This document shows, one piece after another, positions 6,210-25,146 of a stretch of DNA of 30,774 nucleotides (positions are counted from its first letter, which is position 1; every line of letters begins with the position of its first letter). The notes beneath the pieces were generated by a model. The model was not told the origin of the DNA, searched no databases, and saw only the letters and a program-made list of their open reading frames with translations. The translations under genes were made by a program, and so were the position numbers. This DNA is from a virus (taxonomy: Duplodnaviria; Heunggongvirae; Uroviricota; Caudoviricetes): the IMG/VR virus record IMGVR_UViG_2609459790_000004, one strand, 5' to 3'.

Positions 6210-6261
6210 GGCGCCGATCGTCTATATTCTGATCGTCGATTAAACCAACGAGGTGATAGAT

Positions 6262-6516
6262 ATGGCAATTGAAGGACAACTCACAATGGAAGCCAGAAAA
6301 GCCCGGCCAGAAGCTAGCGTGCGATTTGAAAGGAACGGGCAGATTTTAACGATGTTCTGGGATTGGGAATATAAGGGCCAAAAGCTGAGTTACAGCAGGG
6401 CGGAACTGCGCCAGGACTATGAAAAAGATCCAGAAATGGTTGGGGCGGTTGTCGATTTTTGTGTGATCCAAATGGGTATTTTGGAAAAAGGAATTGACGA
6501 CGCCGCGCCGCGTTGA
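6262..6516 (+). CDS. hypothetical small protein (84 aa) between A and cos
   Basis: ATG 6262 with AGGTGA RBS; soluble, no recognisable motif; occupies the position of the P2 orf91/tin/old accessory locus. Confidence 0.5.
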   Translation: MAIEGQLTMEARKARPEASVRFERNGQILTMFWDWEYKGQKLSYSRAELRQDYEKDPEMVGAVVDFCVIQMGILEKGIDDAAPR

Positions 6517-6644
6517 AAATCAGTGCAAAATTTCGCGCAAAACCGCACAAATTTTATGATGGTGATTTTTCAGGAGCAGACCAGACGGGGCGGGCCTTCA
6601 GCTGGTCTGCACATTTGCACAAAAACGCGGGGTTTCTGCGTGCG

Positions 6645-6663
6645 GGCGAGGCGGGGGAATGAG
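6645..6663. other. candidate cos (cohesive end) site
   Basis: GGCGAGGCGGGGGAATGAG resembles the P2 cos cohesive-end sequence recalled from memory (GGCGAGGCGGGGAAAGCAC); lies in a GC-rich non-coding stretch between A-side genes and Q, as in P2. Confidence 0.5.
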
Positions 6664-6774
6664 CGCGCGCTGAGGGGTGGGATAGGGTCGGTATTATCTG
6701 CGCCGATTTTCGCGCCGTTGCGCCTCGCTGCTGCGTCGTTTTCGGTTCGCCGTGGTGGTTTGAGGCAAAAGAAA

Positions 6775-6792
6775 AGCCCATGCCAGCGGGCT
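6775..6792 (-). terminator. candidate intrinsic terminator for the leftward P-Q operon
   Basis: 5-bp stem AGCCC/GGGCT with 8-nt loop; on the minus strand it is followed by a U-rich run (CUUUUCUUUUG); ~80 nt downstream of Q stop. Confidence 0.35.
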
Positions 6793-6873
6793 GCTGAGGG
6801 GCTTATGTGCGGTGTGGTCAGTTGCGGCCGTGCTGGCCGCTCCACGGTGGTGGTGGGTGTGTCTGGGCTGGCG

Positions 6874-7923
6874 TCAGATCGCTGCCTGCAATAGTGCGTA
6901 AGGGTTGAAGCGCACCACGTCGATCCCCAGCCAGTCGTTTAACTCTTTCAGGCTTTCTTGTATCGGGGCCAGTTCGTTGATGGAAAACACCTTCGCCGCT
7001 TTCTCTACGTCGCCGAAGCCACCGGAGTTATTAGGCATTACCCCCATCAGAACGGGCGGCACACGGTGCGCGGCTAGCAGGTCGTCGCGGGTGGCGTCTT
7101 TGATGCCGGTAAACTCATCCTTCGCCGCCACCTGGCTGAACGGCATAATTTGCAGGCCGTCTTTTTTCCCGCCCGCCGCGTAGACAAACAGGTTTTTAAA
7201 AGCACCGTTGCCGCGTGCATCTTTCAGCGACTTCTTAAGCTTTTCCACATCGTTATTATTCGCTACCGGGTCAGTGAGGTAGACGATCACCCCCGCATGA
7301 CTGCCGTTAATGTAGTAGTTGCGGCGAAATACCGTTGCTTCACCGTTCAGCATGGCGCTTTGTAGCGCGGCCAGATATTCCGGCGCGCCGTAGATCTCCT
7401 GGTGCGGGCTGGGGTTCTTGATCTGGCAGACGCTGCCTGGTTCGAACGCGTGATCGTCAACGTAGCGCGGAACAAACCAGAATTGCGCCGGGTCTATGCC
7501 GCGCCGCGTATATTTTGCCTGGCTGTGCCGCAGCTCGATCGGCTGGCCGAGTCGGTTGCGGCGGCATTCCATGTAACAGTTACCGAAAATTAAATAATCC
7601 TGCACCCAGGCGGTGAACTCCTGCCGGGTCAATAGCGGGTGTGGTATGTAGCAACTGGCGATAACATTGCGTTTAAATATCAGCGGTGACTGGTGATAGG
7701 CGGCAACGTCGAACATGCGTGCAAGCCCGTAGGGGCTGATCGGTGGTTCATACCAGCGGCCATTGTTATGGCATTCGAGGCACTCCATAAGAGACGCGCG
7801 ATCGTTGACTGCGATCGGGTCGCCAAAGCTGAAAGATTCCACGCTTTCCAGCGGGGTGGCTGCGTTGCTGGCCGTGCTGGCTGGCGCAGCAGTTGGCGCC
7901 CTGAATTTCTTTTTGCCGCTCAA
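6874..7923 (-). CDS. Q: portal protein (P2 gpQ-like)
   Basis: 349-aa ORF adjacent to terminase; length and position match P2 Q; apparent TTG start immediately after P stop with GGAGGA RBS inside P. Confidence 0.85.
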   Translation of the reverse strand: MSGKKKFRAPTAAPASTASNAATPLESVESFSFGDPIAVNDRASLMECLECHNNGRWYEPPISPYGLARMFDVAAYHQSPLIFKRNVIASCYIPHPLLTRQEFTAWVQDYLIFGNCYMECRRNRLGQPIELRHSQAKYTRRGIDPAQFWFVPRYVDDHAFEPGSVCQIKNPSPHQEIYGAPEYLAALQSAMLNGEATVFRRNYYINGSHAGVIVYLTDPVANNNDVEKLKKSLKDARGNGAFKNLFVYAAGGKKDGLQIMPFSQVAAKDEFTGIKDATRDDLLAAHRVPPVLMGVMPNNSGGFGDVEKAAKVFSINELAPIQESLKELNDWLGIDVVRFNPYALLQAAI

Positions 7924-12715: not shown

Positions 12716-13204
12716 ATGAGTCTGGTAGCCACTGAGCCAGTACGGCCACCATCCGATCCCGTGCCTGATGATGGCGGCGCGAAAGTTGAAAGCCTGCCAT
12801 TCTGGCCGGTCATTTCGCTGGCTGAACTACGCCGCGCGATGCGTCTTGATGGGCAGGTGACAACCGATCGCCTGATGTCGCGAACGGTGGAAGCGGTGGC
12901 CCATGTTAATGATCAGCTTTTCCTGTGGCGCCAGGTGCAGATTGATGCTGGCTATGAGTCATTGGCAGAAATTCCGGCCAGTCCGGTGAATGGCACTTCC
13001 GTGAAGGTATGGCGCTATAAAAACGCCGTGTATTCACTTACTAAGGCGCTGTTGATTGAAGGCTACCGCGATATTGACACCACCAGTAAAGGCGAAGACC
13101 ACGCGGCAGCATTGAGCACGCAGATCGATACGCTGTGGCGGGATGTGCGCTGGTCAATCCGTGATATCCAGGACGAAAGCCGGGGCCTGGCGGAGTTGGT
13201 GTAA
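12716..13204 (+). CDS. L: head completion/stabilisation protein (P2 gpL-like)
   Basis: ATG 12716 with GGAG RBS; in frame with track ORF 12620..13204; stop overlaps X start. Confidence 0.8.
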   Translation: MSLVATEPVRPPSDPVPDDGGAKVESLPFWPVISLAELRRAMRLDGQVTTDRLMSRTVEAVAHVNDQLFLWRQVQIDAGYESLAEIPASPVNGTSVKVWRYKNAVYSLTKALLIEGYRDIDTTSKGEDHAAALSTQIDTLWRDVRWSIRDIQDESRGLAELV

Positions 13205-13404
13205 TGAACGTTCAGGCGCAGCAAAACGACACGATCGACCTGCTTTGCTGGCGCTATTACGGCAGAACAGCAGGCGTTACCGAGGCAGTGATCGATGCCA
13301 ATAAGGGCATTTCCGCCGCCACTGAGTTGCAGGCCGGGCAGATTGTCTACCTGCCAGAGATCCAGCCGCCAGCCCAGCGGGAAACCGTGCAGCTATGGGA
13401 TTAA
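13204..13404 (+). CDS. X: tail protein X (P2 gpX-like)
   Basis: 66-aa ORF, ATG overlapping L stop (TAATG); size and position match P2 X. Confidence 0.75.
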   Translation: MNVQAQQNDTIDLLCWRYYGRTAGVTEAVIDANKGISAATELQAGQIVYLPEIQPPAQRETVQLWD

Positions 13405-13414
13405 GGTGGAGGGT

Positions 13415-13750
13415 ATGCACGACACACCACCGGGATTACTCGAACAAACAATGAAATGGATCGCTACTTATCTGCCGACACTGTTTGCGGCTGGTGCGGC
13501 GCTGAGTATTTCGGCGCTAATGAGCCTTTACGATGGGCAGTCTTTGCTTAAAACCGCCACCGGATCGCTGGTATGTGGGATTGTCACGCTTGCTGTGGCC
13601 GGTTCGCTGGAATATCTGGGGCTTCCGTCCAACGCAGTAACATTCGTGGGCGCCTCAATCGGATTTATGGGCGCGGATAAAGTCCGCAACAAAGTTACCG
13701 GGTTTATCGAAAACCGAATCGGAGGGATGAAAGGTGGAGATGAGCAATAA
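13415..13750 (+). CDS. Y: holin (P2 gpY-like position), 111 aa with hydrophobic segments
   Basis: ATG 13415 with AAGGTGGAGGG RBS; hydrophobic stretches consistent with transmembrane helices; immediately upstream of endolysin. Confidence 0.7.
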   Translation: MHDTPPGLLEQTMKWIATYLPTLFAAGAALSISALMSLYDGQSLLKTATGSLVCGIVTLAVAGSLEYLGLPSNAVTFVGASIGFMGADKVRNKVTGFIENRIGGMKGGDEQ

Positions 13751-14174
13751 CGGCATCAACATGCTGAAAGGTTTTGAAGGGTGCAGGCTGGCCGCTTATC
13801 AGGATTCTGTAGGCGTCTGGACGATCGGTTATGGATGGACTCAACCCGTCAACGGCGTGCCGGTTGGCAAGGGCATGACCATTACGCAGGACACTGCCGA
13901 TAGCCTGTTGCGTAGCGGTCTGGTGCAATATGAAAAAGGCGTTACGGGGCTCGTTAAAGTCACCATCAATCAAAATCAGTTCGATGCGCTGGTTGATTTT
14001 GCCTACAACCTGGGCGTAAAGGCGCTGGAAGGATCCACGCTGCTGAAAAAGCTGAATGCTGGCGATTACGCCGGGGCTGCGGCTGAGTTTCCAAAATGGA
14101 ATAAAGCAGGTGGCAAGGTGTTGCCGGGGCTGGTTAAGCGTCGGGAAGCCGAGCGTACGTTATTTCTGGCCTGA
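13734..14174 (+). CDS. K: endolysin, phage lysozyme family (P2 gpK-like)
   Basis: GFEGCRLAAYQDSVGVWTIGYGW catalytic-Glu motif of lysozyme-like endolysins; start either GTG 13734 (GGAGGG RBS) or ATG 13740. Confidence 0.85.
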   Translation: MEMSNNGINMLKGFEGCRLAAYQDSVGVWTIGYGWTQPVNGVPVGKGMTITQDTADSLLRSGLVQYEKGVTGLVKVTINQNQFDALVDFAYNLGVKALEGSTLLKKLNAGDYAGAAAEFPKWNKAGGKVLPGLVKRREAERTLFLA

Positions 14175-14182
14175 TCATTTTT

Positions 14183-14228
14183 AACTGTGCTGGCCGTGCG
14201 TATCGAGCGCGGTCATTTTTGACAGTGC
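14183..14228 (+). repeat. 46-bp terminator-like hairpin element, copy 1 (paralog of 21634-21679)
   Basis: 85% identity (39/46) with copy 2; contains a 9-bp GC-rich stem (14191-14199 / 14207-14215) followed by T5; sits 9 bp after K stop. Confidence 0.5.
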
Positions 14229-14249
14229 GAGCTGGCGAGAGGTTTAGTG

Positions 14250-14780
14250 ATGGGGTTGTCACGCTGGAAAGTGATCGTTTGTCTTGTGCTGGCCGCTGCT
14301 GCTGTATGGGGTTTTAGCCACTGGCGTTACAGCGTCGGTTACGGTGATGCCGATCAGCACTGGCGTGAAGAGTGGGCGCAACGTGATGCACGCGATGCCA
14401 CCGCGCTGGCGAAAAGGCAGGCTGAGGCAAGGGCAGAAGAACAACGCCGACAAGGTGAAATTGATGCGATCAGAAAACAAGCCAGCCAGCAGCTTGCTGG
14501 CGTGCAGGCTGATGCCGATCGTGCCCGTGCTGCTTCTCGTGGGCTGCACGACAGGGCCGACAAACTCGCCAGGCAACTGGCAGACCGTGAACGCGCCTGC
14601 GGTACCGGAACTCCCGGCAGAAGCGAGGCAGAAACCAGCGGCGCCGTACTGCTCGCCGACTTGTTCCGCCGCGCTGACGATCGAGCGGGGCAACTGGCAA
14701 AAGATGCTGATGAAGCAAGAGCCAGAGGATTAGCCTGTGAGGCTGCGTATGATGCGGTTAAGTCCGGGAGGGATAAGTAA
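14250..14780 (+). CDS. lysB: i-spanin (Rz/LysB-like), N-terminal TM anchor and coiled-coil periplasmic domain
   Basis: ATG 14250 with GAGAGG RBS; N-terminal hydrophobic helix then Ala/Arg/Gln/Glu-rich sequence typical of Rz-type proteins. Confidence 0.75.
   Translation: MGLSRWKVIVCLVLAAAAVWGFSHWRYSVGYGDADQHWREEWAQRDARDATALAKRQAEARAEEQRRQGEIDAIRKQASQQLAGVQADADRARAASRGLHDRADKLARQLADRERACGTGTPGRSEAETSGAVLLADLFRRADDRAGQLAKDADEARARGLACEAAYDAVKSGRDK
14464..14733 (+). CDS. lysC: o-spanin lipoprotein (Rz1/LysC-like) embedded in the +1 frame of lysB
   Basis: ATG 14464 (AAGGTGA RBS); signal peptide ending in lipobox LLVGC; Pro-rich mature part; entirely inside lysB in another frame. Confidence 0.6.
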   Translation: MRSENKPASSLLACRLMPIVPVLLLVGCTTGPTNSPGNWQTVNAPAVPELPAEARQKPAAPYCSPTCSAALTIERGNWQKMLMKQEPED

Positions 14781-15274
14781 TGCTTAAACCCGATTTGCTG
14801 CGCCAGATGATAAGCCAGCATGTGCCCTGGCTGCGCGAGAATCCCGATAATCTGGCGGTTTACCTGCGTAAAGGCCGTATGGTCAGCACCGGCCAGCGTG
14901 CTGCTGCGTTTGAGTACCGCTATACGCTGGAAGTGCTGGTGATGGATTACCCTGAATCTCTGGATACTATCAGCGTGCCGGTACTGGCATGGGCGCGTTT
15001 ATATCAGCCTGATCTGTTATTTAACCCGGACAGGCAGCAGAACGGCATAACATTCGAAGCCGATATCCTGAGTAACAGCACGATGGACGTGCTGATCCAG
15101 ATTCAGGCTGATGAAGCGGTGATCGTCACCCGTGAAAATGGAGAGATCGTCACCCGTCACCGTGCTGACCCTGCTCCGGGGCCAGAAATTGGCGCGTGGT
15201 CACTGGTATTTGTTGATGAGGTCAGCGGCGAAACATGGCAGGACAACAAACCGATCCCCTCTTCCAGCAGTTAG
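14780..15274 (+). CDS. R: tail completion protein R (P2 gpR-like)
   Basis: ATG overlapping lysB stop (TAATG); 164 aa, size and position as P2 R. Confidence 0.8.
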   Translation: MLKPDLLRQMISQHVPWLRENPDNLAVYLRKGRMVSTGQRAAAFEYRYTLEVLVMDYPESLDTISVPVLAWARLYQPDLLFNPDRQQNGITFEADILSNSTMDVLIQIQADEAVIVTRENGEIVTRHRADPAPGPEIGAWSLVFVDEVSGETWQDNKPIPSSSS

Positions 15275-15879
15275 ACGACTGGCTAGCCAGTGTGGCCGCG
15301 CAGCTTTCGCCGGGGCACCGTCGCAAGCTGACGCGCGACGTTGCGATCGGGCTGCGTAAGCGCCAGCAAAAGCGTATCGCCAGCCAGAAGAACCCCAGCG
15401 GTGAAAGCTATCAGGCCCGCCGCCGCAAAATCCTGCGAACCCAGGGCGGGATAAAGTTCATATGGAATGATGAGGCCAGGGAGTTACGCAACTGGCGAAC
15501 AACGGGCAGGGGTGAGCACCGCGCAATCACCGGCTATGACGTGGATCGCGGTGCCCTGCGCACGTTCTATAAGCGCGATATCCAGCGCTATATTGAAATC
15601 AATCTCAACCAGTCCAAGCAGAACCGCACAAGAAAGGATCCGATGTTCCGCAAGCTGCGCACCGCACGCTTCCTTAAGGCTTACGGTACGGGCGGTATGG
15701 CCGTGGTTGGCTTTCAGGGACATACTGCCGAAATTGCCAGCGTTCACCAGTACGGTGAAGTCGATAACGTGGTGCCGGGTGCCCGTGCACGCTACCCGGT
15801 GCGTGAACTCCTGGGCATGACCGAAGGGGATTTAGACTGGCTGGCCGATACTGTTGTCGCCTTCATGCAAGAGATTTGA
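15235..15879 (+). CDS. S: tail completion protein S (P2 gpS-like); start uncertain
   Basis: Track ORF 214 aa overlapping R by 40 nt; P2 S is shorter, so a downstream in-frame start (e.g. GTG 15292) is possible. Confidence 0.7.
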   Translation: MAGQQTDPLFQQLDDWLASVAAQLSPGHRRKLTRDVAIGLRKRQQKRIASQKNPSGESYQARRRKILRTQGGIKFIWNDEARELRNWRTTGRGEHRAITGYDVDRGALRTFYKRDIQRYIEINLNQSKQNRTRKDPMFRKLRTARFLKAYGTGGMAVVGFQGHTAEIASVHQYGEVDNVVPGARARYPVRELLGMTEGDLDWLADTVVAFMQEI

Positions 15880-15880
15880 T

Positions 15881-15898
15881 TGTCACCAACCCGCCACA
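15881..15898. promoter_or_regulatory. Ogr/Delta-type late-promoter dyad TGT-N12-ACA (candidate PV)
   Basis: TGTcaccaacccgccACA immediately after S stop, upstream of V. Confidence 0.5.
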
Positions 15899-16036
15899 AT
15901 GGCGCCGCGTTGTTTGCGCGCGCGCGACTCCTGATACTGACTGCATAACCCAAAAGCCGAAACGGTCGTAAAGCCTGCTACCGGGTGGAAGCGACGCCGG
16001 ACAGCGTAACCGGCACCACGGGAAACAGTCAGCACT

Positions 16037-16666
16037 ATGAATTTAAACGAACTATATCGCCTTATCTGCAATCTCGCCCGCATTGGCACCGTGCTGGAAG
16101 TGGACACGGAAAAGTATCTTGCACGCGTCGAAACCGGCGAGAACAAAACCGACTGGATCCGCTGGGCAGTGCCGCGCGCCGGTGAAGCCGTGACGTGGTG
16201 GGCGCCGACAGTGGGCGAACAGGTTTATATTTTGTGCCCCTGCGGTGAGATGGAGACGGCATTCATTGCCGGAAGCCTTTACAGCGAAGACGCACCGCCG
16301 CCAGATGCTGGCGCTACCACCTGCGTGATCCTGCACCCGGATGGCGCCAGTATTTCATATGACCCGGAGGCCAGCGCGCTGGTTGTCAGCGGGGTAAAAA
16401 CGGCAAGCGTCACCGCGTCGGAATCCATTACCGCCACCGTGCCGGTGGTAACGGTCAAGGCAGATACGCGCGTTACCCTGGACACGCCGGAAGTGGTCTG
16501 CACCAACAAGCTGATCACCGCCACGCTGGAAGTGCAAAAGGGCGGGGAAATGAAGGGCAATATTACCCATTCAGGCGGATCGCTTTCGTCTAATGGTGTC
16601 GTTGTCCATTCTCACAAACATAGCGGCGTCCAGTCCGGTGGTAGTAATACAGGTGGCCCGGTATGA
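16037..16666 (+). CDS. V: baseplate spike / central hub protein (P2 gpV-like)
   Basis: 209-aa ORF; size and order match P2 V; stop overlaps W start (ATGA). Confidence 0.85.
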   Translation: MNLNELYRLICNLARIGTVLEVDTEKYLARVETGENKTDWIRWAVPRAGEAVTWWAPTVGEQVYILCPCGEMETAFIAGSLYSEDAPPPDAGATTCVILHPDGASISYDPEASALVVSGVKTASVTASESITATVPVVTVKADTRVTLDTPEVVCTNKLITATLEVQKGGEMKGNITHSGGSLSSNGVVVHSHKHSGVQSGGSNTGGPV

Positions 16667-17025
16667 GTACAGTCCGTTACAGCGGCATGAATGCCAGTTC
16701 AGGCCATGCCATCACCGACAACGAGCATATAGCGCAGTCTATCGGCGATATTCTGTTAACGCCGATCGGTTCCCGTGTAATGCGCCGCGCTTACGGTTCG
16801 CAGCTTTTCAACCTGATAGATCAGCCGGTCGATAACGCCATAACGAAGCTGCGCGTTATGTCTGCCATCTACAGCGCCCTGTATTTATGGGAACCGCGGA
16901 TCTCTCTGACCAGTATCACCCTGAGCGCGCCGGGTGCCGGTCGGCTGGTTGCCACTATCCAGGCCAATCGCACCGACAATCAGACGCCATTTAACGCTGA
17001 TATTACATTGAGGGGCCAGGCATGA
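16663..17025 (+). CDS. W: baseplate wedge protein (P2 gpW-like)
   Basis: 120-aa ORF, translationally coupled to V and J. Confidence 0.85.
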   Translation: MSTVRYSGMNASSGHAITDNEHIAQSIGDILLTPIGSRVMRRAYGSQLFNLIDQPVDNAITKLRVMSAIYSALYLWEPRISLTSITLSAPGAGRLVATIQANRTDNQTPFNADITLRGQA

Positions 17026-17933
17026 GCGGCACGATCGATTTATCGCAGCTACCGCCGCCCGTGGTGGTTGAACCGCTGGACTTCGAAACGCTTTTCGCGC
17101 AGCGCAAGGCGGCATTTATTGCGATGTACCCGGAAGACGAGCAGGAAGAGATCGCCCGCACGCTTGAGCTTGAATCGGAGCCGATCACCATGCTGCTGGA
17201 AGAGAATTGCTATCGCGAATTGCTGTTGCGCCAGCGGGTGAATGAAGCAGCCCGCGCGGTGATGCTGGCTTATTCCACGGATAGCGATCTGGATAATCTG
17301 GCGGTCAATTTCAACGTTGAACGTCTGACCATTCAGGAAGAAGACGACAGCGTTACACCGCCAATTGAAGCCGTGATGGAGTCAGACCCAGATTTACGCA
17401 CGCGTACCCAGCAGGCTTTTGAAGGTCTGAGCGTGGCCGGGCCAACTGCGGCGTATGAATTTTGGGGGCGTTCAGCAGACGGGCGCGTAGCTGATATTTC
17501 GGCGGTGAGTCCTACGCCTGCCTGCGTCACCATTTCGGTGCTGTCGCGCGAAGGTGACGGAACGGCCAGCGATGATCTGCTTTCCGTGGTCGCTGCTGCC
17601 CTGAACGATGAAGAAGTGCGCCCGGTGGCCGACAGGGTAACGGTGCAGTCTGCGGAGATCGTGCCGTATCAGATTGATGCAACGCTTTACATCTATCCGG
17701 GGCCGGAAGCTGAACCCGTCCGGCAGGCATCGGAACAGCAGTTACAGGCGTATATTGCCGCGCAGAATCGCTTAGGGCGCGATATCCGTCTTTCAGCTAT
17801 CTACGCCGCCCTGCACGTCGAAGGCGTCCAGCGCGTGGAACTGGCGCAGCCTGTTGCGGATATTGTGCTGAGTGACTACCAGGCATCGCACTGCACCGAA
17901 TACACCATAACGGTGGGTGGTTACGATGAGTAA
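17022..17933 (+). CDS. J: baseplate protein J (P2 gpJ-like)
   Basis: 303-aa ORF; order and size as P2 J. Confidence 0.9.
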   Translation: MSGTIDLSQLPPPVVVEPLDFETLFAQRKAAFIAMYPEDEQEEIARTLELESEPITMLLEENCYRELLLRQRVNEAARAVMLAYSTDSDLDNLAVNFNVERLTIQEEDDSVTPPIEAVMESDPDLRTRTQQAFEGLSVAGPTAAYEFWGRSADGRVADISAVSPTPACVTISVLSREGDGTASDDLLSVVAAALNDEEVRPVADRVTVQSAEIVPYQIDATLYIYPGPEAEPVRQASEQQLQAYIAAQNRLGRDIRLSAIYAALHVEGVQRVELAQPVADIVLSDYQASHCTEYTITVGGYDE

Positions 17934-18540
17934 TGACCTGTTACCACCCAGCGCCAGCCGAATGGAGCGCGTCGCCGCGCGCGTCTGTGCGTCGTTGGGT
18001 GAAGTGCCCGTGCCGCTGCGCCAGTTGTGGAACCCGTGGACGTGTCGGGCTGATCTGTTGCCCTATCTGGCGTGGGCCTTCTCCGTTGATCGCTGGGATG
18101 AGGCCTGGCCGATAAACACAAAACGAAAGGCGGTGGCCGATGCGTTTTACCTGCATAAGTACAAGGGTACAACGGGCGCCATGCGCCGGGTTGTGGAGCC
18201 GTTCGGCTTCTTCATCCGGGTTAACGAGTGGTGGAACATCGACACCGCACCGGGCACCTTCACGCTGGATATTGGCGTGGAAGACCAGGGCATTAGTGAA
18301 GAAACCTATCAGGAACTTGAACGCCTGATCGCCGATGTGAAGCCGTGCAGCCGTCATATGCTGGGAATGTCTCTTCACCTGCAAACAACCGGCGATCTGT
18401 ATATCGGCGCGGGCAGTTATTCCGGCGATACGCTAACCGTGTACCCGTATTTTCCTGAAACCATAGCCGTGGGCGGTGATGATTACACCGGGGCGGCAAT
18501 CCATTTAATTGACACCGTGGAGATCGCAAGTGGCGACTAA
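17926..18540 (+). CDS. I: baseplate protein I (P2 gpI-like)
   Basis: ATG 17926 (GGTGG RBS) overlapping J stop; track start 17917 is GTG. Confidence 0.85.
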   Translation: MSNDLLPPSASRMERVAARVCASLGEVPVPLRQLWNPWTCRADLLPYLAWAFSVDRWDEAWPINTKRKAVADAFYLHKYKGTTGAMRRVVEPFGFFIRVNEWWNIDTAPGTFTLDIGVEDQGISEETYQELERLIADVKPCSRHMLGMSLHLQTTGDLYIGAGSYSGDTLTVYPYFPETIAVGGDDYTGAAIHLIDTVEIASGD

Positions 18541-20023
18541 ATATTATGCCGTGCTAACCAATGTGGGCGCGGCGAAACTGGCAAATGCCACGGCATTGGG
18601 TGCGCAGGTTGAAATCACCCAGATGGCTGTAGGCGATGGTAACGGCGTGTTGCCGACGCCGAACCCGGCACAAACGGCGCTGGTTCATGAGCTGCGCCGC
18701 AAGCCGCTTAATAGTCTGAGCATTGACCCGAATAACGCCAACCAGATTATTGCCGAGCAGGTGATACCTGAAGACGAGGGCGGGTGGTGGATCCGTGAAA
18801 TCGGTTTATTCGATAAAGACGGCGATATGATTGCCGTAGCCAACTGTGCGGAAACGTATAAGCCGCAGTTACAGGAGGGAAGCGGGCGCGTACAGGTTGT
18901 ACGCATGATCCTGATTGTCAGCAGCACCGCTGCCGTAACGCTGAAAATTGACCCTTCGGTAGTTCTGGCAACCCGACAGTATGTTGATGATCAGATCATC
19001 CAGGTGAAAAGCTATGTTGATCAGAAAATGGCAGCGCATGTAGCTGCGGCTGATCCGCATAAACAATACGCACCAAAAGAAAGTCCCGCTCTTACTGGCA
19101 GGCCGACTGCGCCAACGGCGGAAGGCAAAGATAGTTCTACTCAAATTGCAAATACAGCTTTCGTTCAGGCTGCTATTGCTGCTTTGGTTGGCTCTTCGCC
19201 TGAAGCGCTGGATACGCTGAATGAACTTGCTGCGGCTTTGGGTAATGATCCTAACTTTGCTACCACCGTAACAAATTCACTCGCTGGAAAGATGGATAAA
19301 TCGGCAAATGGTTCAGACATAGAAAACGTTTCTGTTTTTCTACAAAACCTTGGTTTGGGAGATGCGAGCGGATACGTTGGTAGGCTGCTAAAAATACAGG
19401 TATTCACTGCCAGCGGGACAGTGACAAAAACGCCAGGCGCAAAAAAATGGCGAATTAAATGTCTCGGGGCGGGGGCCGGTAGTTCAGCTGCACCGGCAAC
19501 GGGTAGTAACGAGGTTTCCGTGAGTAACGGGGGCGGCGCAGGGGCATATGCTGAGGGCATTTATGACGTATCGTCAATAACAACGGCGTCAGTCGTCATC
19601 GGTTCCGGCGGTGCAGGAGGAACGGCGGGTTCAATATACGGCGCGGACGGCGGAACTAGCTCAGTTGGTTCGTTTATTTCATCGCCCGGTGGGAAAGCTG
19701 GATTACCCGCCGGACCGGCAACCCCACCATTTCAGCCCGTGGCCAATAGTAACAGCGATAGCTCGACTGGGTGGAATATTGTCGGCTCATCTGGAGCAGG
19801 GGCAGAACCAGCCGTAGCTGTTGCAAATAGCTATGCCGTTGGCTCGCGTGGTTCAAATAGTATATTTGGGGTAGGCGGAGCAACTCCTGCAATGAATAGC
19901 CCGGCAAATACCGGTGGTGGCTATGGTTCTGGAGCATCAGGCTGCTCGAATGGCCCATCTCAACCAACTAAATCAGGCGCAGCGGGACGCCCGGGAATCG
20001 TAATCATTGAGGAGCTGGCATAA
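18530..20023 (+). CDS. H: tail fibre protein (P2 gpH-like) with constant N-terminal part and invertible, glycine-rich variable C-terminal part (current orientation)
   Basis: N-terminus ..YYAVLTNVGAAKLANATALG..MAVGDGNG resembles P2 H; preferred start GTG 18530 (GGAG RBS 7 nt upstream), track start TTG 18509; the C-terminal ~220 aa lie inside the invertible segment. Confidence 0.85.
   Translation: MATKYYAVLTNVGAAKLANATALGAQVEITQMAVGDGNGVLPTPNPAQTALVHELRRKPLNSLSIDPNNANQIIAEQVIPEDEGGWWIREIGLFDKDGDMIAVANCAETYKPQLQEGSGRVQVVRMILIVSSTAAVTLKIDPSVVLATRQYVDDQIIQVKSYVDQKMAAHVAAADPHKQYAPKESPALTGRPTAPTAEGKDSSTQIANTAFVQAAIAALVGSSPEALDTLNELAAALGNDPNFATTVTNSLAGKMDKSANGSDIENVSVFLQNLGLGDASGYVGRLLKIQVFTASGTVTKTPGAKKWRIKCLGAGAGSSAAPATGSNEVSVSNGGGAGAYAEGIYDVSSITTASVVIGSGGAGGTAGSIYGADGGTSSVGSFISSPGGKAGLPAGPATPPFQPVANSNSDSSTGWNIVGSSGAGAEPAVAVANSYAVGSRGSNSIFGVGGATPAMNSPANTGGGYGSGASGCSNGPSQPTKSGAAGRPGIVIIEELA
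19338..19363. promoter_or_regulatory. hix/gix/cix-like 26-bp recombination site (left), inside gene H
   Basis: TTCTACAAAACC TT GGTTTGGGAGAT; 20-bp inverted repeat with the right site (19/20 identical); resembles the hixL consensus recalled from memory. Confidence 0.6.
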
Positions 20024-20220
20024 TGAGTAATTATGCGATAGTTAAAAATGGCGTCGTTGAAAATGTTGTTGTATGGGACGGGATTGGTAATATTTTCGAC
20101 AATTATATAGTGGTAAATATTGAAAATATAAATGCAGGAATAGGCTGGTTGTATGACGGAGAGGCTTTTACCCCTCCGTCTGAGCTTACGCCTACACCAC
20201 CGGGAAATCAGGCCAGTTAA
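20023..20220 (+). CDS. small hypothetical protein (65 aa) downstream of H in the expressed orientation; possible tail-fibre chaperone
   Basis: ATG overlapping H stop (TAATG); AT-rich; function inferred only from position. Confidence 0.45.
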   Translation: MSNYAIVKNGVVENVVVWDGIGNIFDNYIVVNIENINAGIGWLYDGEAFTPPSELTPTPPGNQAS

Positions 20221-20599
20221 TATCTGGCGCAGTGCTGGTATCAATTACCTGCACTGCGTCGATATAGTCCAGCACTGCGTTTAACCGCGTAGTTTCTGCA
20301 TCAGTCAGCATACGCCCTGCCAGCAATTTCATTTGCAGCACACTAATTGACTGCATTGCTGAATCTATCAGCGACTGTTTTTTCTGCTCGCCTCTCGCAA
20401 CTTCTTCTTCACGCGTCAAACCGATGGGCTCTTGCAATACCGGGTGACCATCATTTCCAGCGGAAATTATTTTTCCATTGGCCTGACCGTCAAACAGCCG
20501 GTGATATTCATCTGAGCTAATTTCTATAGCGTTATCTGGAATGTGGTTATTTAATCCGTCAATATAAAATGCACCATCTAAAAAATAATATTTCATCAT
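20192..20599 (-). CDS. tail fibre assembly protein (Tfa/gpG/Mu U-like), alternative-orientation copy
   Basis: N-terminus MMKYYFLDGAFY and C-terminus ..DAVQVIDTSTAPDINWPDFPVV match the conserved tail-fibre-assembly family ends; ATG overlaps the stop of the alternative fibre segment. Confidence 0.8.
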   Translation of the reverse strand: MMKYYFLDGAFYIDGLNNHIPDNAIEISSDEYHRLFDGQANGKIISAGNDGHPVLQEPIGLTREEEVARGEQKKQSLIDSAMQSISVLQMKLLAGRMLTDAETTRLNAVLDYIDAVQVIDTSTAPDINWPDFPVV

Positions 20600-20982
20600 T
20601 TACCCCACGCGAATACGATGCATCCTGCATTTTCTACTGCTGAAATTTGTGATCCGTTATCTACCCTGCATATTGCCTGAACGCCTGTTTTAGTGAGCGT
20701 ACTCAGTTGTATTGCCCATGTATTGGAAATTCCTGCACCCCAGGCATACGGATTACGCTCTATCACAACAGCGCCCAGGCCGAAAACATCAAAACTGGCA
20801 GGAAAAACAACGTCCGCAGCACCGCCAGAATTTGTATTCCCCAGTACCCACATGATTTTAAAACCCCCAGGGAATCGCGCCACACCGGGCATGTTTAGTG
20901 TTGATGCAAAACTGGACATATCAGGAATCTGATTTGCGCCGGTGCCGACGTTGCGGCGCGACGCTGTACCCAGATCTCCCAA
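20596..20982 (-). CDS. alternative tail-fibre C-terminal segment (silent in this orientation; fuses to H constant part after inversion)
   Basis: No ATG of its own (track start is TTG within the right hix site); after inversion at the 2-bp cores the H frame reads ..QNLGLGD-LGTASRRNVG.. continuously into this ORF. Confidence 0.7.
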   Translation of the reverse strand: MGDLGTASRRNVGTGANQIPDMSSFASTLNMPGVARFPGGFKIMWVLGNTNSGGAADVVFPASFDVFGLGAVVIERNPYAWGAGISNTWAIQLSTLTKTGVQAICRVDNGSQISAVENAGCIVFAWGK

Positions 20983-20999
20983 ACCAACGTTTTTGAAAA
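20974..20999. promoter_or_regulatory. hix/gix/cix-like 26-bp recombination site (right)
   Basis: ATCTCCCAAACC AA CGTTTTTGAAAA; inverted repeat of the left site; strong match to the hix consensus as recalled. Confidence 0.6.
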
Positions 21000-21053
21000 T
21001 GCATAATTATCAGTCAAATGGCATGATTTCTCATTTTAACGGAATGAAAAACC

Positions 21054-21635
21054 ATGCTTATTGGATATGTACGCGTATCAACAAATGACCAGAACACGGC
21101 TTTGCAACGTGATGCGCTGGAGCGGTCAGGATGTGAGCTTATTTTTGAAGATAAAATGAGCGGTAAAACAGCAGAAAGACCGGGGCTTAAAAAATTACTA
21201 AAGCGCCTTTCTCCAGAAGATACGCTTGTTGTCTGGAAGCTGGATCGTCTTGGGCGGAGTATGCGGAACTTGGTCATTCTGGTGGAGGAACTAAAGCAAC
21301 GTTCCGTGAACTTCCGCAGCCTGACTGACAGTATTGATACCTCAACACCAATGGGGCGTTTCTTTTTTCATGTTATGGGAGCACTGGCAGAGATGGAGAG
21401 AGAATTGATTGTCGAGCGTACGCGTGCAGGACTGGTGGCCGCTCGCGCGCAGGGAAGGATCGGCGGTAGACGTCCAAAACTAACACCAGAACAATGGGCG
21501 CAGGCGGGTAGGTTAATAGCGGCAGGGGAATCGCGCCGGAGGGTTGCCATAATTTATGATGTTGGGATATCTACGCTTTACAAAAAATTCCCAGCGACCA
21601 GAGATAAGAATTCCGGCACGCATGGCCGGTTATAA
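21054..21635 (+). CDS. serine recombinase, Hin/Gin/Cin/Pin-family DNA invertase
   Basis: 193-aa ORF; GYVRVSTNDQ (catalytic Ser region), TLVVWKLDRLGRS, MGRFFFHVMGALAEMERELIVERT and C-terminal HTH are near-identical in pattern to Hin/Gin. Confidence 0.95.
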   Translation: MLIGYVRVSTNDQNTALQRDALERSGCELIFEDKMSGKTAERPGLKKLLKRLSPEDTLVVWKLDRLGRSMRNLVILVEELKQRSVNFRSLTDSIDTSTPMGRFFFHVMGALAEMERELIVERTRAGLVAARAQGRIGGRRPKLTPEQWAQAGRLIAAGESRRRVAIIYDVGISTLYKKFPATRDKNSGTHGRL

Positions 21636-21679
21636 CCGTGCTGGCCGTGTGTATCGAGTACGGTCACTTTTAACGGTGC
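21634..21679 (+). repeat. 46-bp terminator-like hairpin element, copy 2 (paralog of 14183-14228)
   Basis: Overlaps invertase stop codon; stem 21642-21650 / 21658-21666 followed by T4; three stem differences from copy 1 all preserve pairing. Confidence 0.5.
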
Positions 21680-21741
21680 TGTAGCACGGTCAGTTATGGT
21701 GGTGTATTACGGAAGACGAAGCAGGCAATGGCCCGCTTTTC

Positions 21742-22191
21742 TTATATCGAAAGGTTGGTTTTCACCAGAGAGAAGAGATCGTCGGTGGTGGTTTCAGCCA
21801 GCTTTTCCCGTATGTCCTCGCTTACCCGTTTCAGGTTGAGCGTGAAATCAATTTTCTTTGCCTTCCCGTCCTTAAAAAACTCCGTCCGGTTTTGCGTGAT
21901 CTGCTCAATTACATACATGCCGTAGATCCTGCCCGTGCCTTCTATCAGGGGCCACGGGCGCCCGGAAAAAGCCATAGTTTCCAGCATGACAAGCGACACA
22001 TCACCGCCGCTTATTTCGGGGTACAGCGTGCCGCTGAGTACGAACGGTTCTTCATCTGCGCCGATGAACTGATAGCGCGGGGATTTCCCCACGCGATCGT
22101 TTTTGACGTGCCGCCAGGAGTTGGTTTTATTCGCACTCTGGTAAGGTGTGGTTTGCAGTGAAAAGGGGAACATCCCCAGAATCATCATCAT
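21742..22191 (-). CDS. U: tail protein U (P2 gpU-like)
   Basis: 149-aa ORF immediately downstream of the tape-measure gene on the minus strand; position and size as P2 U. Confidence 0.8.
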   Translation of the reverse strand: MMMILGMFPFSLQTTPYQSANKTNSWRHVKNDRVGKSPRYQFIGADEEPFVLSGTLYPEISGGDVSLVMLETMAFSGRPWPLIEGTGRIYGMYVIEQITQNRTEFFKDGKAKKIDFTLNLKRVSEDIREKLAETTTDDLFSLVKTNLSI

Positions 22192-22200
22192 GATATTGCC

Positions 22201-25146
22201 TTAGACGTGATCGGTCAGTTGGGAGCGCTTGCGCCGGTCGGCCTGTTGCTTCGCTAACGCAAGTTCTTCGCGCACGCGCCTGATAATGGTTTCTTCATCC
22301 AGTTTCTGGCCGCTAAAGTCGAAGTTAAGGTTATATACATCGCCACCCGGAGCAGGCATCAGCGCAGCGACGGAAGCCGCAGACGGAGACGCAGAAACAG
22401 GCATCCGTGCGGCGGGCTTCTCAACCTGCCAAGGCGTAACGGAAGCGATCAGCGATCCGGCCTGCTGCGTCACCCAATCGGTAAGGGATGGTAGCTGGCG
22501 CTGCGCCTGCTTAAGCGGTTCCGAATATCCGCCACGGATCGGGATATAGGGCTGCTTATTCTTGAAGACAATTTCGCCGGGGCCGTCTTTCTTCTCCGTG
22601 GTATTGGTGGCGATCTTGTCCAGGCTGTTGCTCATCTTCGGCACGATGTTGGCCGGGCCTTTGAGCGAGTTAATTAAGCTTTCCTGCTTTTTCTGCTGGT
22701 CAATGGCCTGCTGTTGCTTCTGGTTGGTTTTCTTCTGCTGATCGTCTTTCGGCGACCAGTTCCAACCCTTTTTAACCATTTTCTTTTGCTGCGGATCCCA
22801 CTCCCAGACAACAGGGTCTTTGTGCATACTTTCCGCAGCTTGCTGCGCTGCTTTTGTTGCGTCGGGGATGGCGCCGAGTTTCTCAAGTATCCATCCAATC
22901 CCGTTAGCGACGGCTTGAATAGGTAGCGTCAGCGCGCTGATTGCGGCCCCTACAACCTTGCCGAACGTTTCCCCGGCACTGGTGCAGGATGCCAGCGCTT
23001 CACTGGAAAACTGGATCGGTTCCAGCAGTTTGGTAAACCATTCCCAGACCCCACTGATCGCGTTGCCGATACTGTCAAAAATCGGGGCCAGTGGTGCAAA
23101 TACGGCGTTAAATGCCTGCGTGATTGGTTGAAGGCCAGTCATCAGGCCGGTAAAGAAGCCGCTGAAAAACGCCTGTATGGGTTGCCAGAATTTAATGACG
23201 GCCACTGCTGCCGCAGCAAAGAGCGCAATCAGCCCCCAGACGGGCGCAGAAATACCAGCCAGTAGAGTAATAAGCGGGCCGAATACCATGCGACCGGCGC
23301 TTAATAATGCCTGCATAGGCGAGCCAGCAAGCCACTGGAACGCACCACCCAGGCGCATTACTCCGCCAGTCAGCCGCGCTATTCCTCCTTCCCCGGCCAG
23401 CGTGGTGAAGCTGAGGCGAACAAGTGCCATCGGGCCCAGCACTGCGCCGATGGACAGCATCAGGCCACCCACGACAACCAGCAACGCGCCTATGGCTGCG
23501 GTGACTTTCATGATTGAACCAACCAGCGCCGGGTTTGCCTCAACCCAACGCCGGACGCTGCCAACCACCTTACTGACGGTAAGCATGATATCCATCAGCG
23601 GTTCGCGGAGCGTTTCCCCTGCTGAACTGAATGCGTTAACCGCGCCGGTTTTGGTCAGTTGCCACTGAGCAGAAAGGGAGTCTTTATTGATATCGGATTC
23701 CCGATTCATGGAACCTTTAGCGGCAGCACCCTGCGTCAGTTCGATCTGGCGCCGAAGTTCGGGCAGGTTGTTCGCAAGTTTCTGTGCATCATCCCCGAAC
23801 TCTTTACCGAAAATCTGGGTAAGGTTGGCTACCTGCTTATCTGGTGCAAGTTTTTTGGACGCTTCCAGCACTGAAATGATCGTGCCCATCGCGTCCACTG
23901 ACATGCTTTTCTGGACTTTCTCAGCATTGACGCCGATCTCATCCAGAGCACCCAAAAATTTATCGCTTTGTACTGTGGCGATCGACAGTTCACGCACCAT
24001 TGCATTGGTGGCGCTGGCTGCAACTTCGGCAGGTGATCCAAGCGTCAGAAAGGTGGAGCCCAGCGCGGCGGCTTGCTTGTAATCCAGTTGGCTGGCAAGC
24101 CCGCCAACGCGCTGGAGCACGTCGATAATATCGGAGCCTTTCGACTTCGCGTTATCGTCCAGGTAGTTTATGGCGTCGCCCAACTGTTCAATATTCTGGG
24201 TAGGGATTTTATACAGCCCGGCAATCTTACCGAGACTTTCAGAAAGCTGATCGGCGGGCAGTTCAAAGGCTACCGAAGCCTTTGCCGCCATGCTGGCAAA
24301 AGCCAGCAGATCGGCTTTTTGCTTTTGCCACGGATCATTGCTGTTTGCGACGCCCATACGCGCGCCACCTTCGACCAGTGCGGCATAGTCAACAGCACCG
24401 TTTGCCATTGGCAGCTTTTCGCTGGCATCCATGATCGCCCGCTGCATTTCTTCATATTGCGGGGTGCGGTTGCCGCTGTCGTCACGCAAGCCGTTTACCT
24501 GTTTGGCTACGCCCTTCATTGCGTCTTCAAGGCTGCTGTAGGATTTAACCGCAGCGGCGACAGGTGCTAGGGTTGCCGCCCCTACTGCGGCGGTTTTCAT
24601 CCCCCCGCTCATCATCTTTTCGCCGGTTTCTTTGGCGCGGCTGTAACGGGCCTGCGCCTGGTTAACAGCGTCAAGCCGTCGCTGCTGTTCGGCAAGCTGG
24701 CGGTTGTATTGCGCGGTGCGCTGGTTGATCTGTTCCGTCGCCCGGCTGGCGCTGCTGATCGCAATGCCTTCGCTGTAGAAGCTGGCCCGCAACTGGTTAA
24801 GCTGTGTCTGCTCGCCTTTCTGCTGCTGGGTTAACTGGCGAATGGCTGCACGTTGCTGATTGAGGGCGGCAACCTGTTCGGCGCTGCGCTGGCGTAACGG
24901 GCCATAGGCCGCCGCCATTTGCCGGGCCTGTTCTTTCGCCTGGGCCAGTTGTTCGGTGGTTTTTTTATTGGCTGCGGTGAGGCGGTCAAAGCTGGTTGCC
25001 TGACGCTCAAGCCCTTTAATGCTGGTTTTAGTCTGGTTGATTTGAGACGCCAACGCGGCGGCACTCTGGCGCGCCGCGTTGACAGGGCGGGACATATTAT
25101 TCAGGGCGCTGAATGCCACCCTGATATTTAAATTGCGGTCTGCCAT
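22201..25146 (-). CDS. T: tail tape measure protein (P2 gpT-like)
   Basis: 981-aa ORF with long Ala/Gln-rich coiled-coil and hydrophobic segments typical of tape-measure proteins. Confidence 0.9.
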   Translation of the reverse strand: MADRNLNIRVAFSALNNMSRPVNAARQSAAALASQINQTKTSIKGLERQATSFDRLTAANKKTTEQLAQAKEQARQMAAAYGPLRQRSAEQVAALNQQRAAIRQLTQQQKGEQTQLNQLRASFYSEGIAISSASRATEQINQRTAQYNRQLAEQQRRLDAVNQAQARYSRAKETGEKMMSGGMKTAAVGAATLAPVAAAVKSYSSLEDAMKGVAKQVNGLRDDSGNRTPQYEEMQRAIMDASEKLPMANGAVDYAALVEGGARMGVANSNDPWQKQKADLLAFASMAAKASVAFELPADQLSESLGKIAGLYKIPTQNIEQLGDAINYLDDNAKSKGSDIIDVLQRVGGLASQLDYKQAAALGSTFLTLGSPAEVAASATNAMVRELSIATVQSDKFLGALDEIGVNAEKVQKSMSVDAMGTIISVLEASKKLAPDKQVANLTQIFGKEFGDDAQKLANNLPELRRQIELTQGAAAKGSMNRESDINKDSLSAQWQLTKTGAVNAFSSAGETLREPLMDIMLTVSKVVGSVRRWVEANPALVGSIMKVTAAIGALLVVVGGLMLSIGAVLGPMALVRLSFTTLAGEGGIARLTGGVMRLGGAFQWLAGSPMQALLSAGRMVFGPLITLLAGISAPVWGLIALFAAAAVAVIKFWQPIQAFFSGFFTGLMTGLQPITQAFNAVFAPLAPIFDSIGNAISGVWEWFTKLLEPIQFSSEALASCTSAGETFGKVVGAAISALTLPIQAVANGIGWILEKLGAIPDATKAAQQAAESMHKDPVVWEWDPQQKKMVKKGWNWSPKDDQQKKTNQKQQQAIDQQKKQESLINSLKGPANIVPKMSNSLDKIATNTTEKKDGPGEIVFKNKQPYIPIRGGYSEPLKQAQRQLPSLTDWVTQQAGSLIASVTPWQVEKPAARMPVSASPSAASVAALMPAPGGDVYNLNFDFSGQKLDEETIIRRVREELALAKQQADRRKRSQLTDHV

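Follow-up and report, generated by a model that had tools for sequence, protein, structure and literature searches.

An intergenic repeat family of P2-like prophages and its proposed role at exchange junctions

P2-like prophages are among the commonest in enterobacteria, and their variable loci, few in number, carry defence and conversion genes. Several kinds of described stem-loop sequences resemble the element that we report here from one such prophage, and each differs from it in other respects: (i) The ERIC (IRU) and Correia elements are imperfect palindromes of ~100-150 nt, intergenic or intercistronic and in either orientation, which are co-transcribed with their neighbours, can affect mRNA stability or termination, vary through internal deletions and are present in tens to hundreds of copies across host chromosomes. 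Our element is likewise an intergenic imperfect palindrome that is found in either orientation and shows internal deletions; however, there are 1-3 copies of it per phage genome and none was seen in the rest of the host chromosome, there was no sign of a target duplication, and the copies are stably tied to particular junctions. (ii) The PeSL (promoter-early stem-loop) cassettes of T4-type phages border variable gene cassettes, and modular shuffling has been proposed for them. These cassettes, and also the paralogous RNase III sites of T7, share with the present element the property of being repeated, sequence-related intergenic stem-loops within one phage genome. In contrast to the PeSL cassettes, our element has no recognisable promoter, its sequences are unrelated to those of either, and unlike the T7 sites, its copies in the window lack the ~20 bp RNase III-type double helix. 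(iii) The record of phage P2 itself (AF063097) annotates a 'putative transcription attenuator; O operon' just before gene R and a 'putative rho-independent terminator for V operon' after gene G. These signals are hairpin-based and occupy positions in the gene order analogous to the sites called T1 and T2 below, but they are unrelated to our element in sequence and are single hairpins rather than paralogous copies of a composite element; moreover, the P2 attenuator lies within the late O operon, with the lysis genes on one side and R on the other, whereas in the window our element precedes the spanin gene, one gene ahead of that position. A blastn search of P2 with the element returned no copy.

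The window, by which we mean the whole stretch of 30,774 nucleotides that was analysed (IMG/VR record IMGVR_UViG_2609459790_000004), is a P2-like prophage in which the stretch 13000-22500 shows 95.9% identity, over 73% of its length, with the Salmonella phages SEN4 and SEN5 (Peduoviridae, Senquatrovirus). The 121 bases around the second of the two copies discussed here match prophage DNA in ~20 E. coli genomes at 100%. According to the Pfam assignments, copy 1 is flanked on its 5' side by a phage lysozyme (endolysin) gene (13734-14174, TGA at 14172-14174) and on its 3' side by a DUF2514 spanin gene (14250-14780, ATG at 14250), with the tail-completion gene R next in order. Copy 2 shares bases with the stop of a resolvase-type invertase gene (21054-21635, TAA at 21633-21635) and is faced by the 3' end of gene U, which lies on the minus strand (21742-22191, stop at 21742-21744).

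A sequence-only reading of this DNA had singled out two 46-bp stretches, 14183-14228 and 21634-21679, as being alike far beyond chance. This is borne out: 39 of the 46 bases are the same (42/50 over 14179-14228 and 21630-21679), the pair is the best direct 46-mer match within the window, and the best score obtained from 12 random sequences of matched composition (first-order Markov) was only 29-31/46, which rules out a chance duplication. Folding of the RNA also returned the predicted hairpins, with a 9-bp stem (8-9 bp in copy 2), the 7-nt loop GUAUCGA and a T-run. In copy 1 the hairpin (14191..14220, plus strand) is made up of the 5' arm TGGCCGTGC (14191-14199), the loop GTATCGA (14200-14206) and the 3' arm GCGCGGTCA (14207-14215), followed by the T-run at 14216-14220, which reads UUUUU in the RNA; 6 of its 9 pairs are G-C, the loop is of 7 nt and the energy is -14.9 kcal/mol. 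The hairpin of copy 2 (21642..21671, plus strand) has the arms TGGCCGTGT (21642-21650) and GTACGGTCA (21658-21666) around the same loop GTATCGA (21651-21657), and is followed by CTTTT (21667-21671; CUUUU in the RNA); its 8-9 bp include 3 G-U pairs and its energy is -8.2 kcal/mol. The short direct motif that had been noticed on both flanks is equally real, and in addition it makes an outer helix of 5 bp, ACUGU/ACAGU in copy 1 and ACCGU/ACGGU in copy 2. In copy 1 this helix (14184..14226, plus strand) pairs ACTGT at 14184-14188 with ACAGT at 14222-14226, and each strand forms the core of one of two direct repeat units, TCATTTTTRACNGTGC (14175-14190 and 14213-14228).

The differences between the copies had been taken as compensatory changes and hence as a sign of selection on structure, and here we come to another conclusion. 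The three changes in the stem (U-G/G-C/C-G in copy 1, U-A/G-U/U-G in copy 2) do keep the pairing, as had been stated, but each of them is one-sided, so that they are not compensatory. All seven differences between the copies are transitions. By our own calculation ~11 of the 18 possible transitions in the stem retain a standard pair, which gives a chance of ~0.23 that three out of three would do so; one-sided transitions of this kind are thus expected by chance in about one case in 4, and the argument fails. The only two-sided change between the copies is that in the outer helix, from U-A to C-G. Compared with shuffles, the folds of the 61-nt stretches are not unusual either as RNA (z = -1.30 for copy 1 and -0.50 for copy 2) or as DNA (z = -0.38 and -1.18). 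In both copies the minus strand gives the poorer fold, and this, together with the tolerated G-U pairs, is as expected for RNA.

The two 46-bp stretches are true paralogues, and each is only part of an element of 75-110 nt. This larger element consists of two to four tandem units, each ending GTCA-TTTTT-RAC-N-GTGCTG, at spacings of 38 and 26 bp; the first full unit holds the hairpin and the second a small palindrome. Taken as a whole, copy 1 (14175..14246, plus strand, delimited by alignment with 27 related loci) runs from just past the endolysin stop to the ribosome-binding site GAGAGG of the spanin gene (14237-14242), and it has lost a 26-bp unit that is common to most copies at this junction. 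The corresponding copy of SEN5 is 26 bp longer, and its likeness to copy 2 extends into the small palindrome GTGCTSCAGCAC and a further unit. The whole conserved element of copy 2 (21610..21715, plus strand, ATTCCGGCA...ACGGAAG) includes the small palindrome of the second unit, GTGCTGTAGCAC (21676-21687), and a third unit, GGTCAGTTATGGTGGTG (21688-21704), and its left arm encodes the last 8 codons of the invertase (NSGTHGRL) and the stop (21610-21635). Two further partial matches had been pointed out in the window. The one at 7867-7880 does not stand: it lies inside the portal gene and the other motifs are all missing, so it is treated as chance or codon usage. The one at ~6827 (6815..6839, plus strand, TGGTCAGTTGCGGCCGTGCTGGCCG, with a palindrome of its own, GCGGCCGTGCTGGCCGC) does resemble the repeat unit and the 5' arm, at 18-19/25, but no hit was obtained there with the HMM of the family at E<=1, and it is at best a degenerate fragment of the element. 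The stretch is non-coding, with cos on one side and the portal gene on the other, and its position corresponds to that of the putative terminator tQ in P2.

Scanning viral contigs and loci from relatives for the sequence pattern gave 102 matches, 76 of which, 54 of them distinct, carry the rest of the element, the remainder being chance hits in GC-rich coding DNA. Recurrence in related P2-like phages at module junctions, which had been suggested as a check, was therefore found, in these 76 copies at three main junctions. The first, T1, lies after the endolysin gene and before the spanin gene (19 distinct copies; copy 1 belongs here); the second, T2, lies after a tail-fibre assembly gene or an invertase gene, facing U (28 distinct copies; copy 2 belongs here); and the third, T3, lies after the replication gene A and directly before a methylase gene whose product starts MSYLGSK (7 distinct copies). 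All three are occupied together in SEN5, and copies are also carried by the named phages phiT5282H, 3LV2017 and SW5/SI7.

Complete E. coli genomes were positive in 38/5426 cases, at a median of 2 places each, and every E. coli copy inspected lay within P2-like prophage DNA; this rarity and this location rule out a host repeat such as REP or ERIC. Two plasmid records carry the element. When one genome was searched per species, every true hit came from Enterobacterales, apart from one bin labelled as Bacillota, whose sequence is nearly identical to the copies of Kluyvera and Erwinia; the genera with hits are Citrobacter, Kluyvera, Enterobacter, Kosakonia, Erwinia, Izhakiella, Mixta, Dryocola and Salmonella. 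The covariance models of Rfam gave no hit in the window at the gathering score, none for copy 2 at E<=10 and only noise hits for the T1 copy of SEN5 (15-16 bits against cut-offs of 65-72), and a full-text literature search with the characteristic sequence words of the element returned unrelated primers only. The best reading of the element is as an undescribed, lineage-specific intergenic repeat family at mosaic junctions, and as such it could be used in annotation as a marker of module boundaries.

Mosaic boundaries do coincide with the element. T1 is 95-99% identical beside at least three unrelated endolysin 3' ends, with the spanin gene at 90-93%. Comparison of the lineage of the window with the phiT5282H-like one gives 83-90% identity for T2 over 105 nt, while the adjacent U gene reaches 65-72%, only a fraction of it aligning, and there is hardly any alignment of the tape-measure gene; sliding windows over three pairs gave 82-96% across T2 with a sharp fall at +100, and in one of the three pairs the tail-fibre assembly gene upstream of T2 is unrelated. 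The element is, in other words, better conserved than the neighbouring structural genes. Among the loci anchored on the spanin protein at >=85% identity T1 is present in 27/27, of which 24 are full length, 2 lack the 26-bp unit and 1 lacks the 38-bp unit; at 70-79% identity the element is present in 0/8, and there the endolysin and spanin genes overlap at ATGA. The 26-bp unit is gone from T1 in the window and in loci L209 and L221, and in locus L201 the 38-bp unit is gone and the hairpin with it. These deletion variants indicate unequal recombination between the units.

The reading that we favour, with a probability of roughly 0.5, is that of a paralogous repeat element of 75-110 nt at exchange junctions, of which copy 1 acts at the RNA level and copy 2 is a weak paralogue. 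The element would be restricted to a single group of P2-like phages (Peduoviridae) plus a small number of allied mobile elements of Enterobacterales. Non-coding junctions are few in such compact genomes, and the copies occupy them; these junctions would also be the places where modules are exchanged. Since it is conserved while its flanks diverge, it may also serve, by design or as a side effect, as a homology patch for the recombination of modules, and it is a candidate for the sequence on which cargo-reshuffling recombination acts. Some observations run against the RNA-level part of this reading, in that L201 has no hairpin at all, and the element is inverted in other lineages and antisense to its neighbours in two further contexts. 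The inverted form was found in loci anchored on a U gene 78-94% identical to that of the window, at the same junction but on the U strand, where it makes a long near-perfect palindrome (ATCGAGCACCGTCAT...GTGCTGCAGCAC...ATGACGGTGCTCGAT; ~-36 to -47 kcal/mol); the phages that have it still carry T1 in direct orientation.

Alternatively, the element could be a feature of the DNA without an RNA role, either a small non-autonomous mobile or recombination-prone repeat of the ERIC or Correia kind or a conserved linker that persists through mediating module exchange, the hairpins being by-products of its palindromic build. We regard this as unlikely. It would account for the occupation of at least 5 kinds of site in both orientations, for the sharp mosaic boundaries at the ends of the element, for the variation in unit number through deletion and for the fold of the inverted-form palindrome at ~-40 kcal/mol. 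T2 has imperfect terminal inverted repeats as well (TTCCGGCACGCA vs TTCCGGAACACA, with 12-nt ends matching at 9-10/12), but T1 and T3 have no right end to match. Relatives also offer 'empty' junctions; however, the empty endolysin-spanin junctions with their ATGA overlap differ by more than a simple insertion, and no target-site duplication is recognisable. The number of copies, 1-3 per genome with none seen outside P2-like or allied mobile-element DNA, is low for such a repeat, the copies cluster by site type and not by genome, which argues against recent transposition, and the hairpin of T1 is specifically maintained.

This maintenance is a property of one type of site. The T1 hairpin has a median of -14.9 kcal/mol, with 11/12 distinct variants at or below -8, in contrast to those of T2 (median -3.6 kcal/mol; 2/22 distinct variants) and T3 (median -4.4 kcal/mol; 0/6 distinct variants); with its -8.2 kcal/mol, copy 2 of the window is among the best of the T2 hairpins. 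When 40 distinct cores were aligned, 90.5% of cells showed the pairing proposed in the sequence-only reading. The two central stem pairs, however, were broken in 14/40 and 20/40 of the cores and the middle pair of the outer helix in 10/40, and the RNAalifold consensus reached only -7.1 kcal/mol with a covariation term of -0.8. Applied to 32 distinct full-length T2 copies, RNAalifold did not recover the hairpin, and 0/22 of the pairs that it predicted were two-sided. The substitutions in T1 are few and wobble-compatible, and one variant (L010) combines a true two-sided change, from G-C to A-U, with one disruptive change. Selection on structure holds, then, only at the T1 site. At T2 there is almost no variation in the T-run or in much of the primary sequence, including that of the loop and spacers. 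Because the hairpins of T2 and T3 are mostly disrupted and yet their sequence is conserved, either some other constraint acts on them or the sequence has spread by recombination; a function at the DNA level, the binding of a factor and spread by recombination are the candidates. We also considered a long-range fold of T2, which reaches ~-54 to -64 kcal/mol in single sequences, and rejected it, the changes in the 5' half being unmatched in the 3' half.

These comparisons also bear on the proposal from which the analysis started, namely that both copies are ordinary intrinsic terminators under selection for RNA structure, copy 1 ending the lysis transcript and copy 2 that of the invertase, which we now find quite doubtful. 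Each copy has a hairpin and a T-run, both lie at gene ends, the differences between them retain pairing and P2 has putative terminators in equivalent positions. Copy 1 indeed has the sequence characteristics of an intrinsic terminator and came first among the sites in a terminator scan of 12-23 kb (9 pairs, 6 G-C, loop 7, TTTTT), but copy 2 was not called by the scan, failing at the threshold of 5 T in 8, and although it lies at an operon end it is probably not the terminator there. The hairpins of T2 and T3 are broken in most relatives (the medians of -3.6 and -4.4 kcal/mol given above), no two-sided changes appear among the 32 distinct T2 copies, and conservation reaches ~100 nt past what a terminator needs. 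In addition, a canonical terminator hairpin (21719..21741, plus strand, AAGCAGGC-AATG-GCCCGCTT with a T-run) already stands between copy 2 and the U stop, ~50 nt downstream of copy 2, and is kept in all T2 loci. We predict that real termination at the invertase/U junction is done by this hairpin and not by copy 2, which would be the weaker of the two paralogues and belong to the 3' untranslated region of the transcript that covers the tail-fibre and invertase genes. In the window the canonical hairpin has an A-C mismatch (A at 21723) and an energy of -9.8 kcal/mol, against -16 to -17 kcal/mol in relatives.

Copy 1 is internal to the late O operon: the spanin gene, R and S lie downstream of it with no Ogr box before them, the Ogr boxes of the window (TGT-N12-ACA) being located upstream of O/P, V and FI/D only. 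These three genes must therefore be reached by read-through of copy 1; R and S are essential tail genes of the same operon without a promoter of their own downstream of copy 1, so that copy 1 can be at most a leaky terminator, which stands against its ending the transcript. To return to the reading as a paralogous repeat element, copy 1 probably acts, to judge from its hairpin and U5 run, as a partial terminator or as a stabiliser of mRNA 3' ends; that is, it would be a leaky terminator (attenuator) and/or a 3' hairpin stabilising the head and lysis message. This makes the element a candidate regulator of the balance between the head and lysis genes on one side and the spanin and tail-completion genes on the other. 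If it should turn out to be merely a leaky terminator and a decayed copy of it, the feature would be an ordinary one, still to be annotated as one family and not as isolated hairpins.

We consider it very improbable that the units bind a protein of the phage or the host, or that they act as a hairpin signal on single-stranded DNA in rolling-circle replication (for priming, or as a secondary site of the gene A nickase), for although there are three to four similar units at the fixed spacings of 38 and 26 bp, some of them palindromic (ACNGTCA-N4-5-TGACNGT), with primary sequence conserved rather than pairing, and although the P2 record puts the ori nick on the strand bearing copies 1 and 2 and the centre of the element resembles the ori nick region by eye, this likeness is within chance (1.6-37% of windows from the same genome reach its score), the spacings do not correspond to whole helical turns, no such units are present in the immunity or late-promoter regions, opposite orientations are possible within one genome and the folds of the single-stranded DNA are not unusual.

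Several more specific identities were examined and rejected. An ori-like or gene A nick site was considered from the comparison of CC^TCGGAGTTCTGTCAATAACTGT (~5748) with TCGAGTACAGTCATTTTTAACGGTG of the element, which 1.6-37% of windows equal in score, and the similarity of the element to CC^TCGGAGTYCTGTCAATAACTGT of a P2-type origin is likewise within chance, the true ori being at ~5748-5773. The P2-type nick sequence there, CCTCGGAGTTCTGTCAATAACTGTAC (5748-5773), lies inside gene A with a GGCGGC/GCCGCC hairpin before it, and is nearly identical in the window, P2, SEN5, 3LV2017 and other loci. A small ORF on the minus strand (MT[AV]LDTHGQH) has no ribosome-binding site, and its frame is broken by indels of 1-2 nt in T3 and in 3LV2017. 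As a sigma-70 promoter the element offers only a TTGACA in T1, with a poor -10 and no conservation across types, and promoter-like sites are no more frequent in the region than in shuffles; neither does it contain an Ogr box as in P2 late promoters (TGT-N12-ACA, ~55 bp upstream of the start). A by-eye check for IHF, LexA, Pho box and dif-like sites gave no convincing match, and a search for the repeat units outside the known copies found none in the immunity region or at other sites. A crossover site of the invertase (hix/gix/cix) or its enhancer was rejected as well: the real crossover sites, at 19344-19363 and 20974-20993, are unrelated, and the element is also present in invertase-free phages.

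Rousset et al. (2022; PMC9122126) called unknown the mechanism that concentrates cargo turnover at the hot spots of P2-like phages. A bolder reading of our data, to which we would attach only a small probability, is that the element is a dedicated cis-acting cassette which marks variable loci and helps to drive gene exchange at them, and which may insulate incoming cargo transcriptionally. Again as a tentative proposal of rather low probability, the loci concerned would be those after gene A next to cos, at the tail fibre/Z-fun, between S and V (orf30) and in the lysis cassette. If true, this would provide a sequence-level handle on the turnover of cargo, including defence genes, at the hot spots.

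Some minor observations concern the rarer sites and the surroundings of the element. In Dryocola sp. (L182, ~1290-1405) the S-V junction, which holds orf30 in P2, has a copy antisense to both genes. In Kluyvera, Erwinia and Izhakiella (L176, ~930-1090; L178; L190, 6545-6680) copies lie beside the 3' end of an integrase gene and adjoin repeated TGTAAC(T)TTT motifs; they belong to a different mobile element, encoding a large primase, a repressor and an excisionase. In SEN5 a methylase cassette with a T3 element follows gene A. Both are absent from the window, where nothing but a small ORF (6253-6516) and the cos-like sequence GGCGAGGCGGGGGAATGAG (6645-6663; cosL of P2 is GGCGAGGCGGGGAAAGCAC) is found in the region after gene A (6209-6874).

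The tail-fibre region of the window is bounded by an inverted repeat of 20 bp, 95% complementary (19344-19363 and 20974-20993, AAAACCTTGGTTTGGGAGAT / ATCTCCCAAACCAACGTTTT). The 1.6-kb segment between its arms carries opposed tail-fibre C-termini and tail-fibre assembly genes, and the invertase gene adjoins it; this arrangement is a host-range switch of the Gin/Cin type. SEN5 (L001, 14940-15005) has no invertase gene and keeps a remnant of the invertase 3' end upstream of T2, which argues that the element predates the insertion of the invertase. In five loci (L115, L116, L124, L125 and L129) a half-site of the invertase crossover, CCCAAACCAACCTTTGATAGAAG, abuts the inverted element downstream of U, with no invertase gene between this half-site and U.
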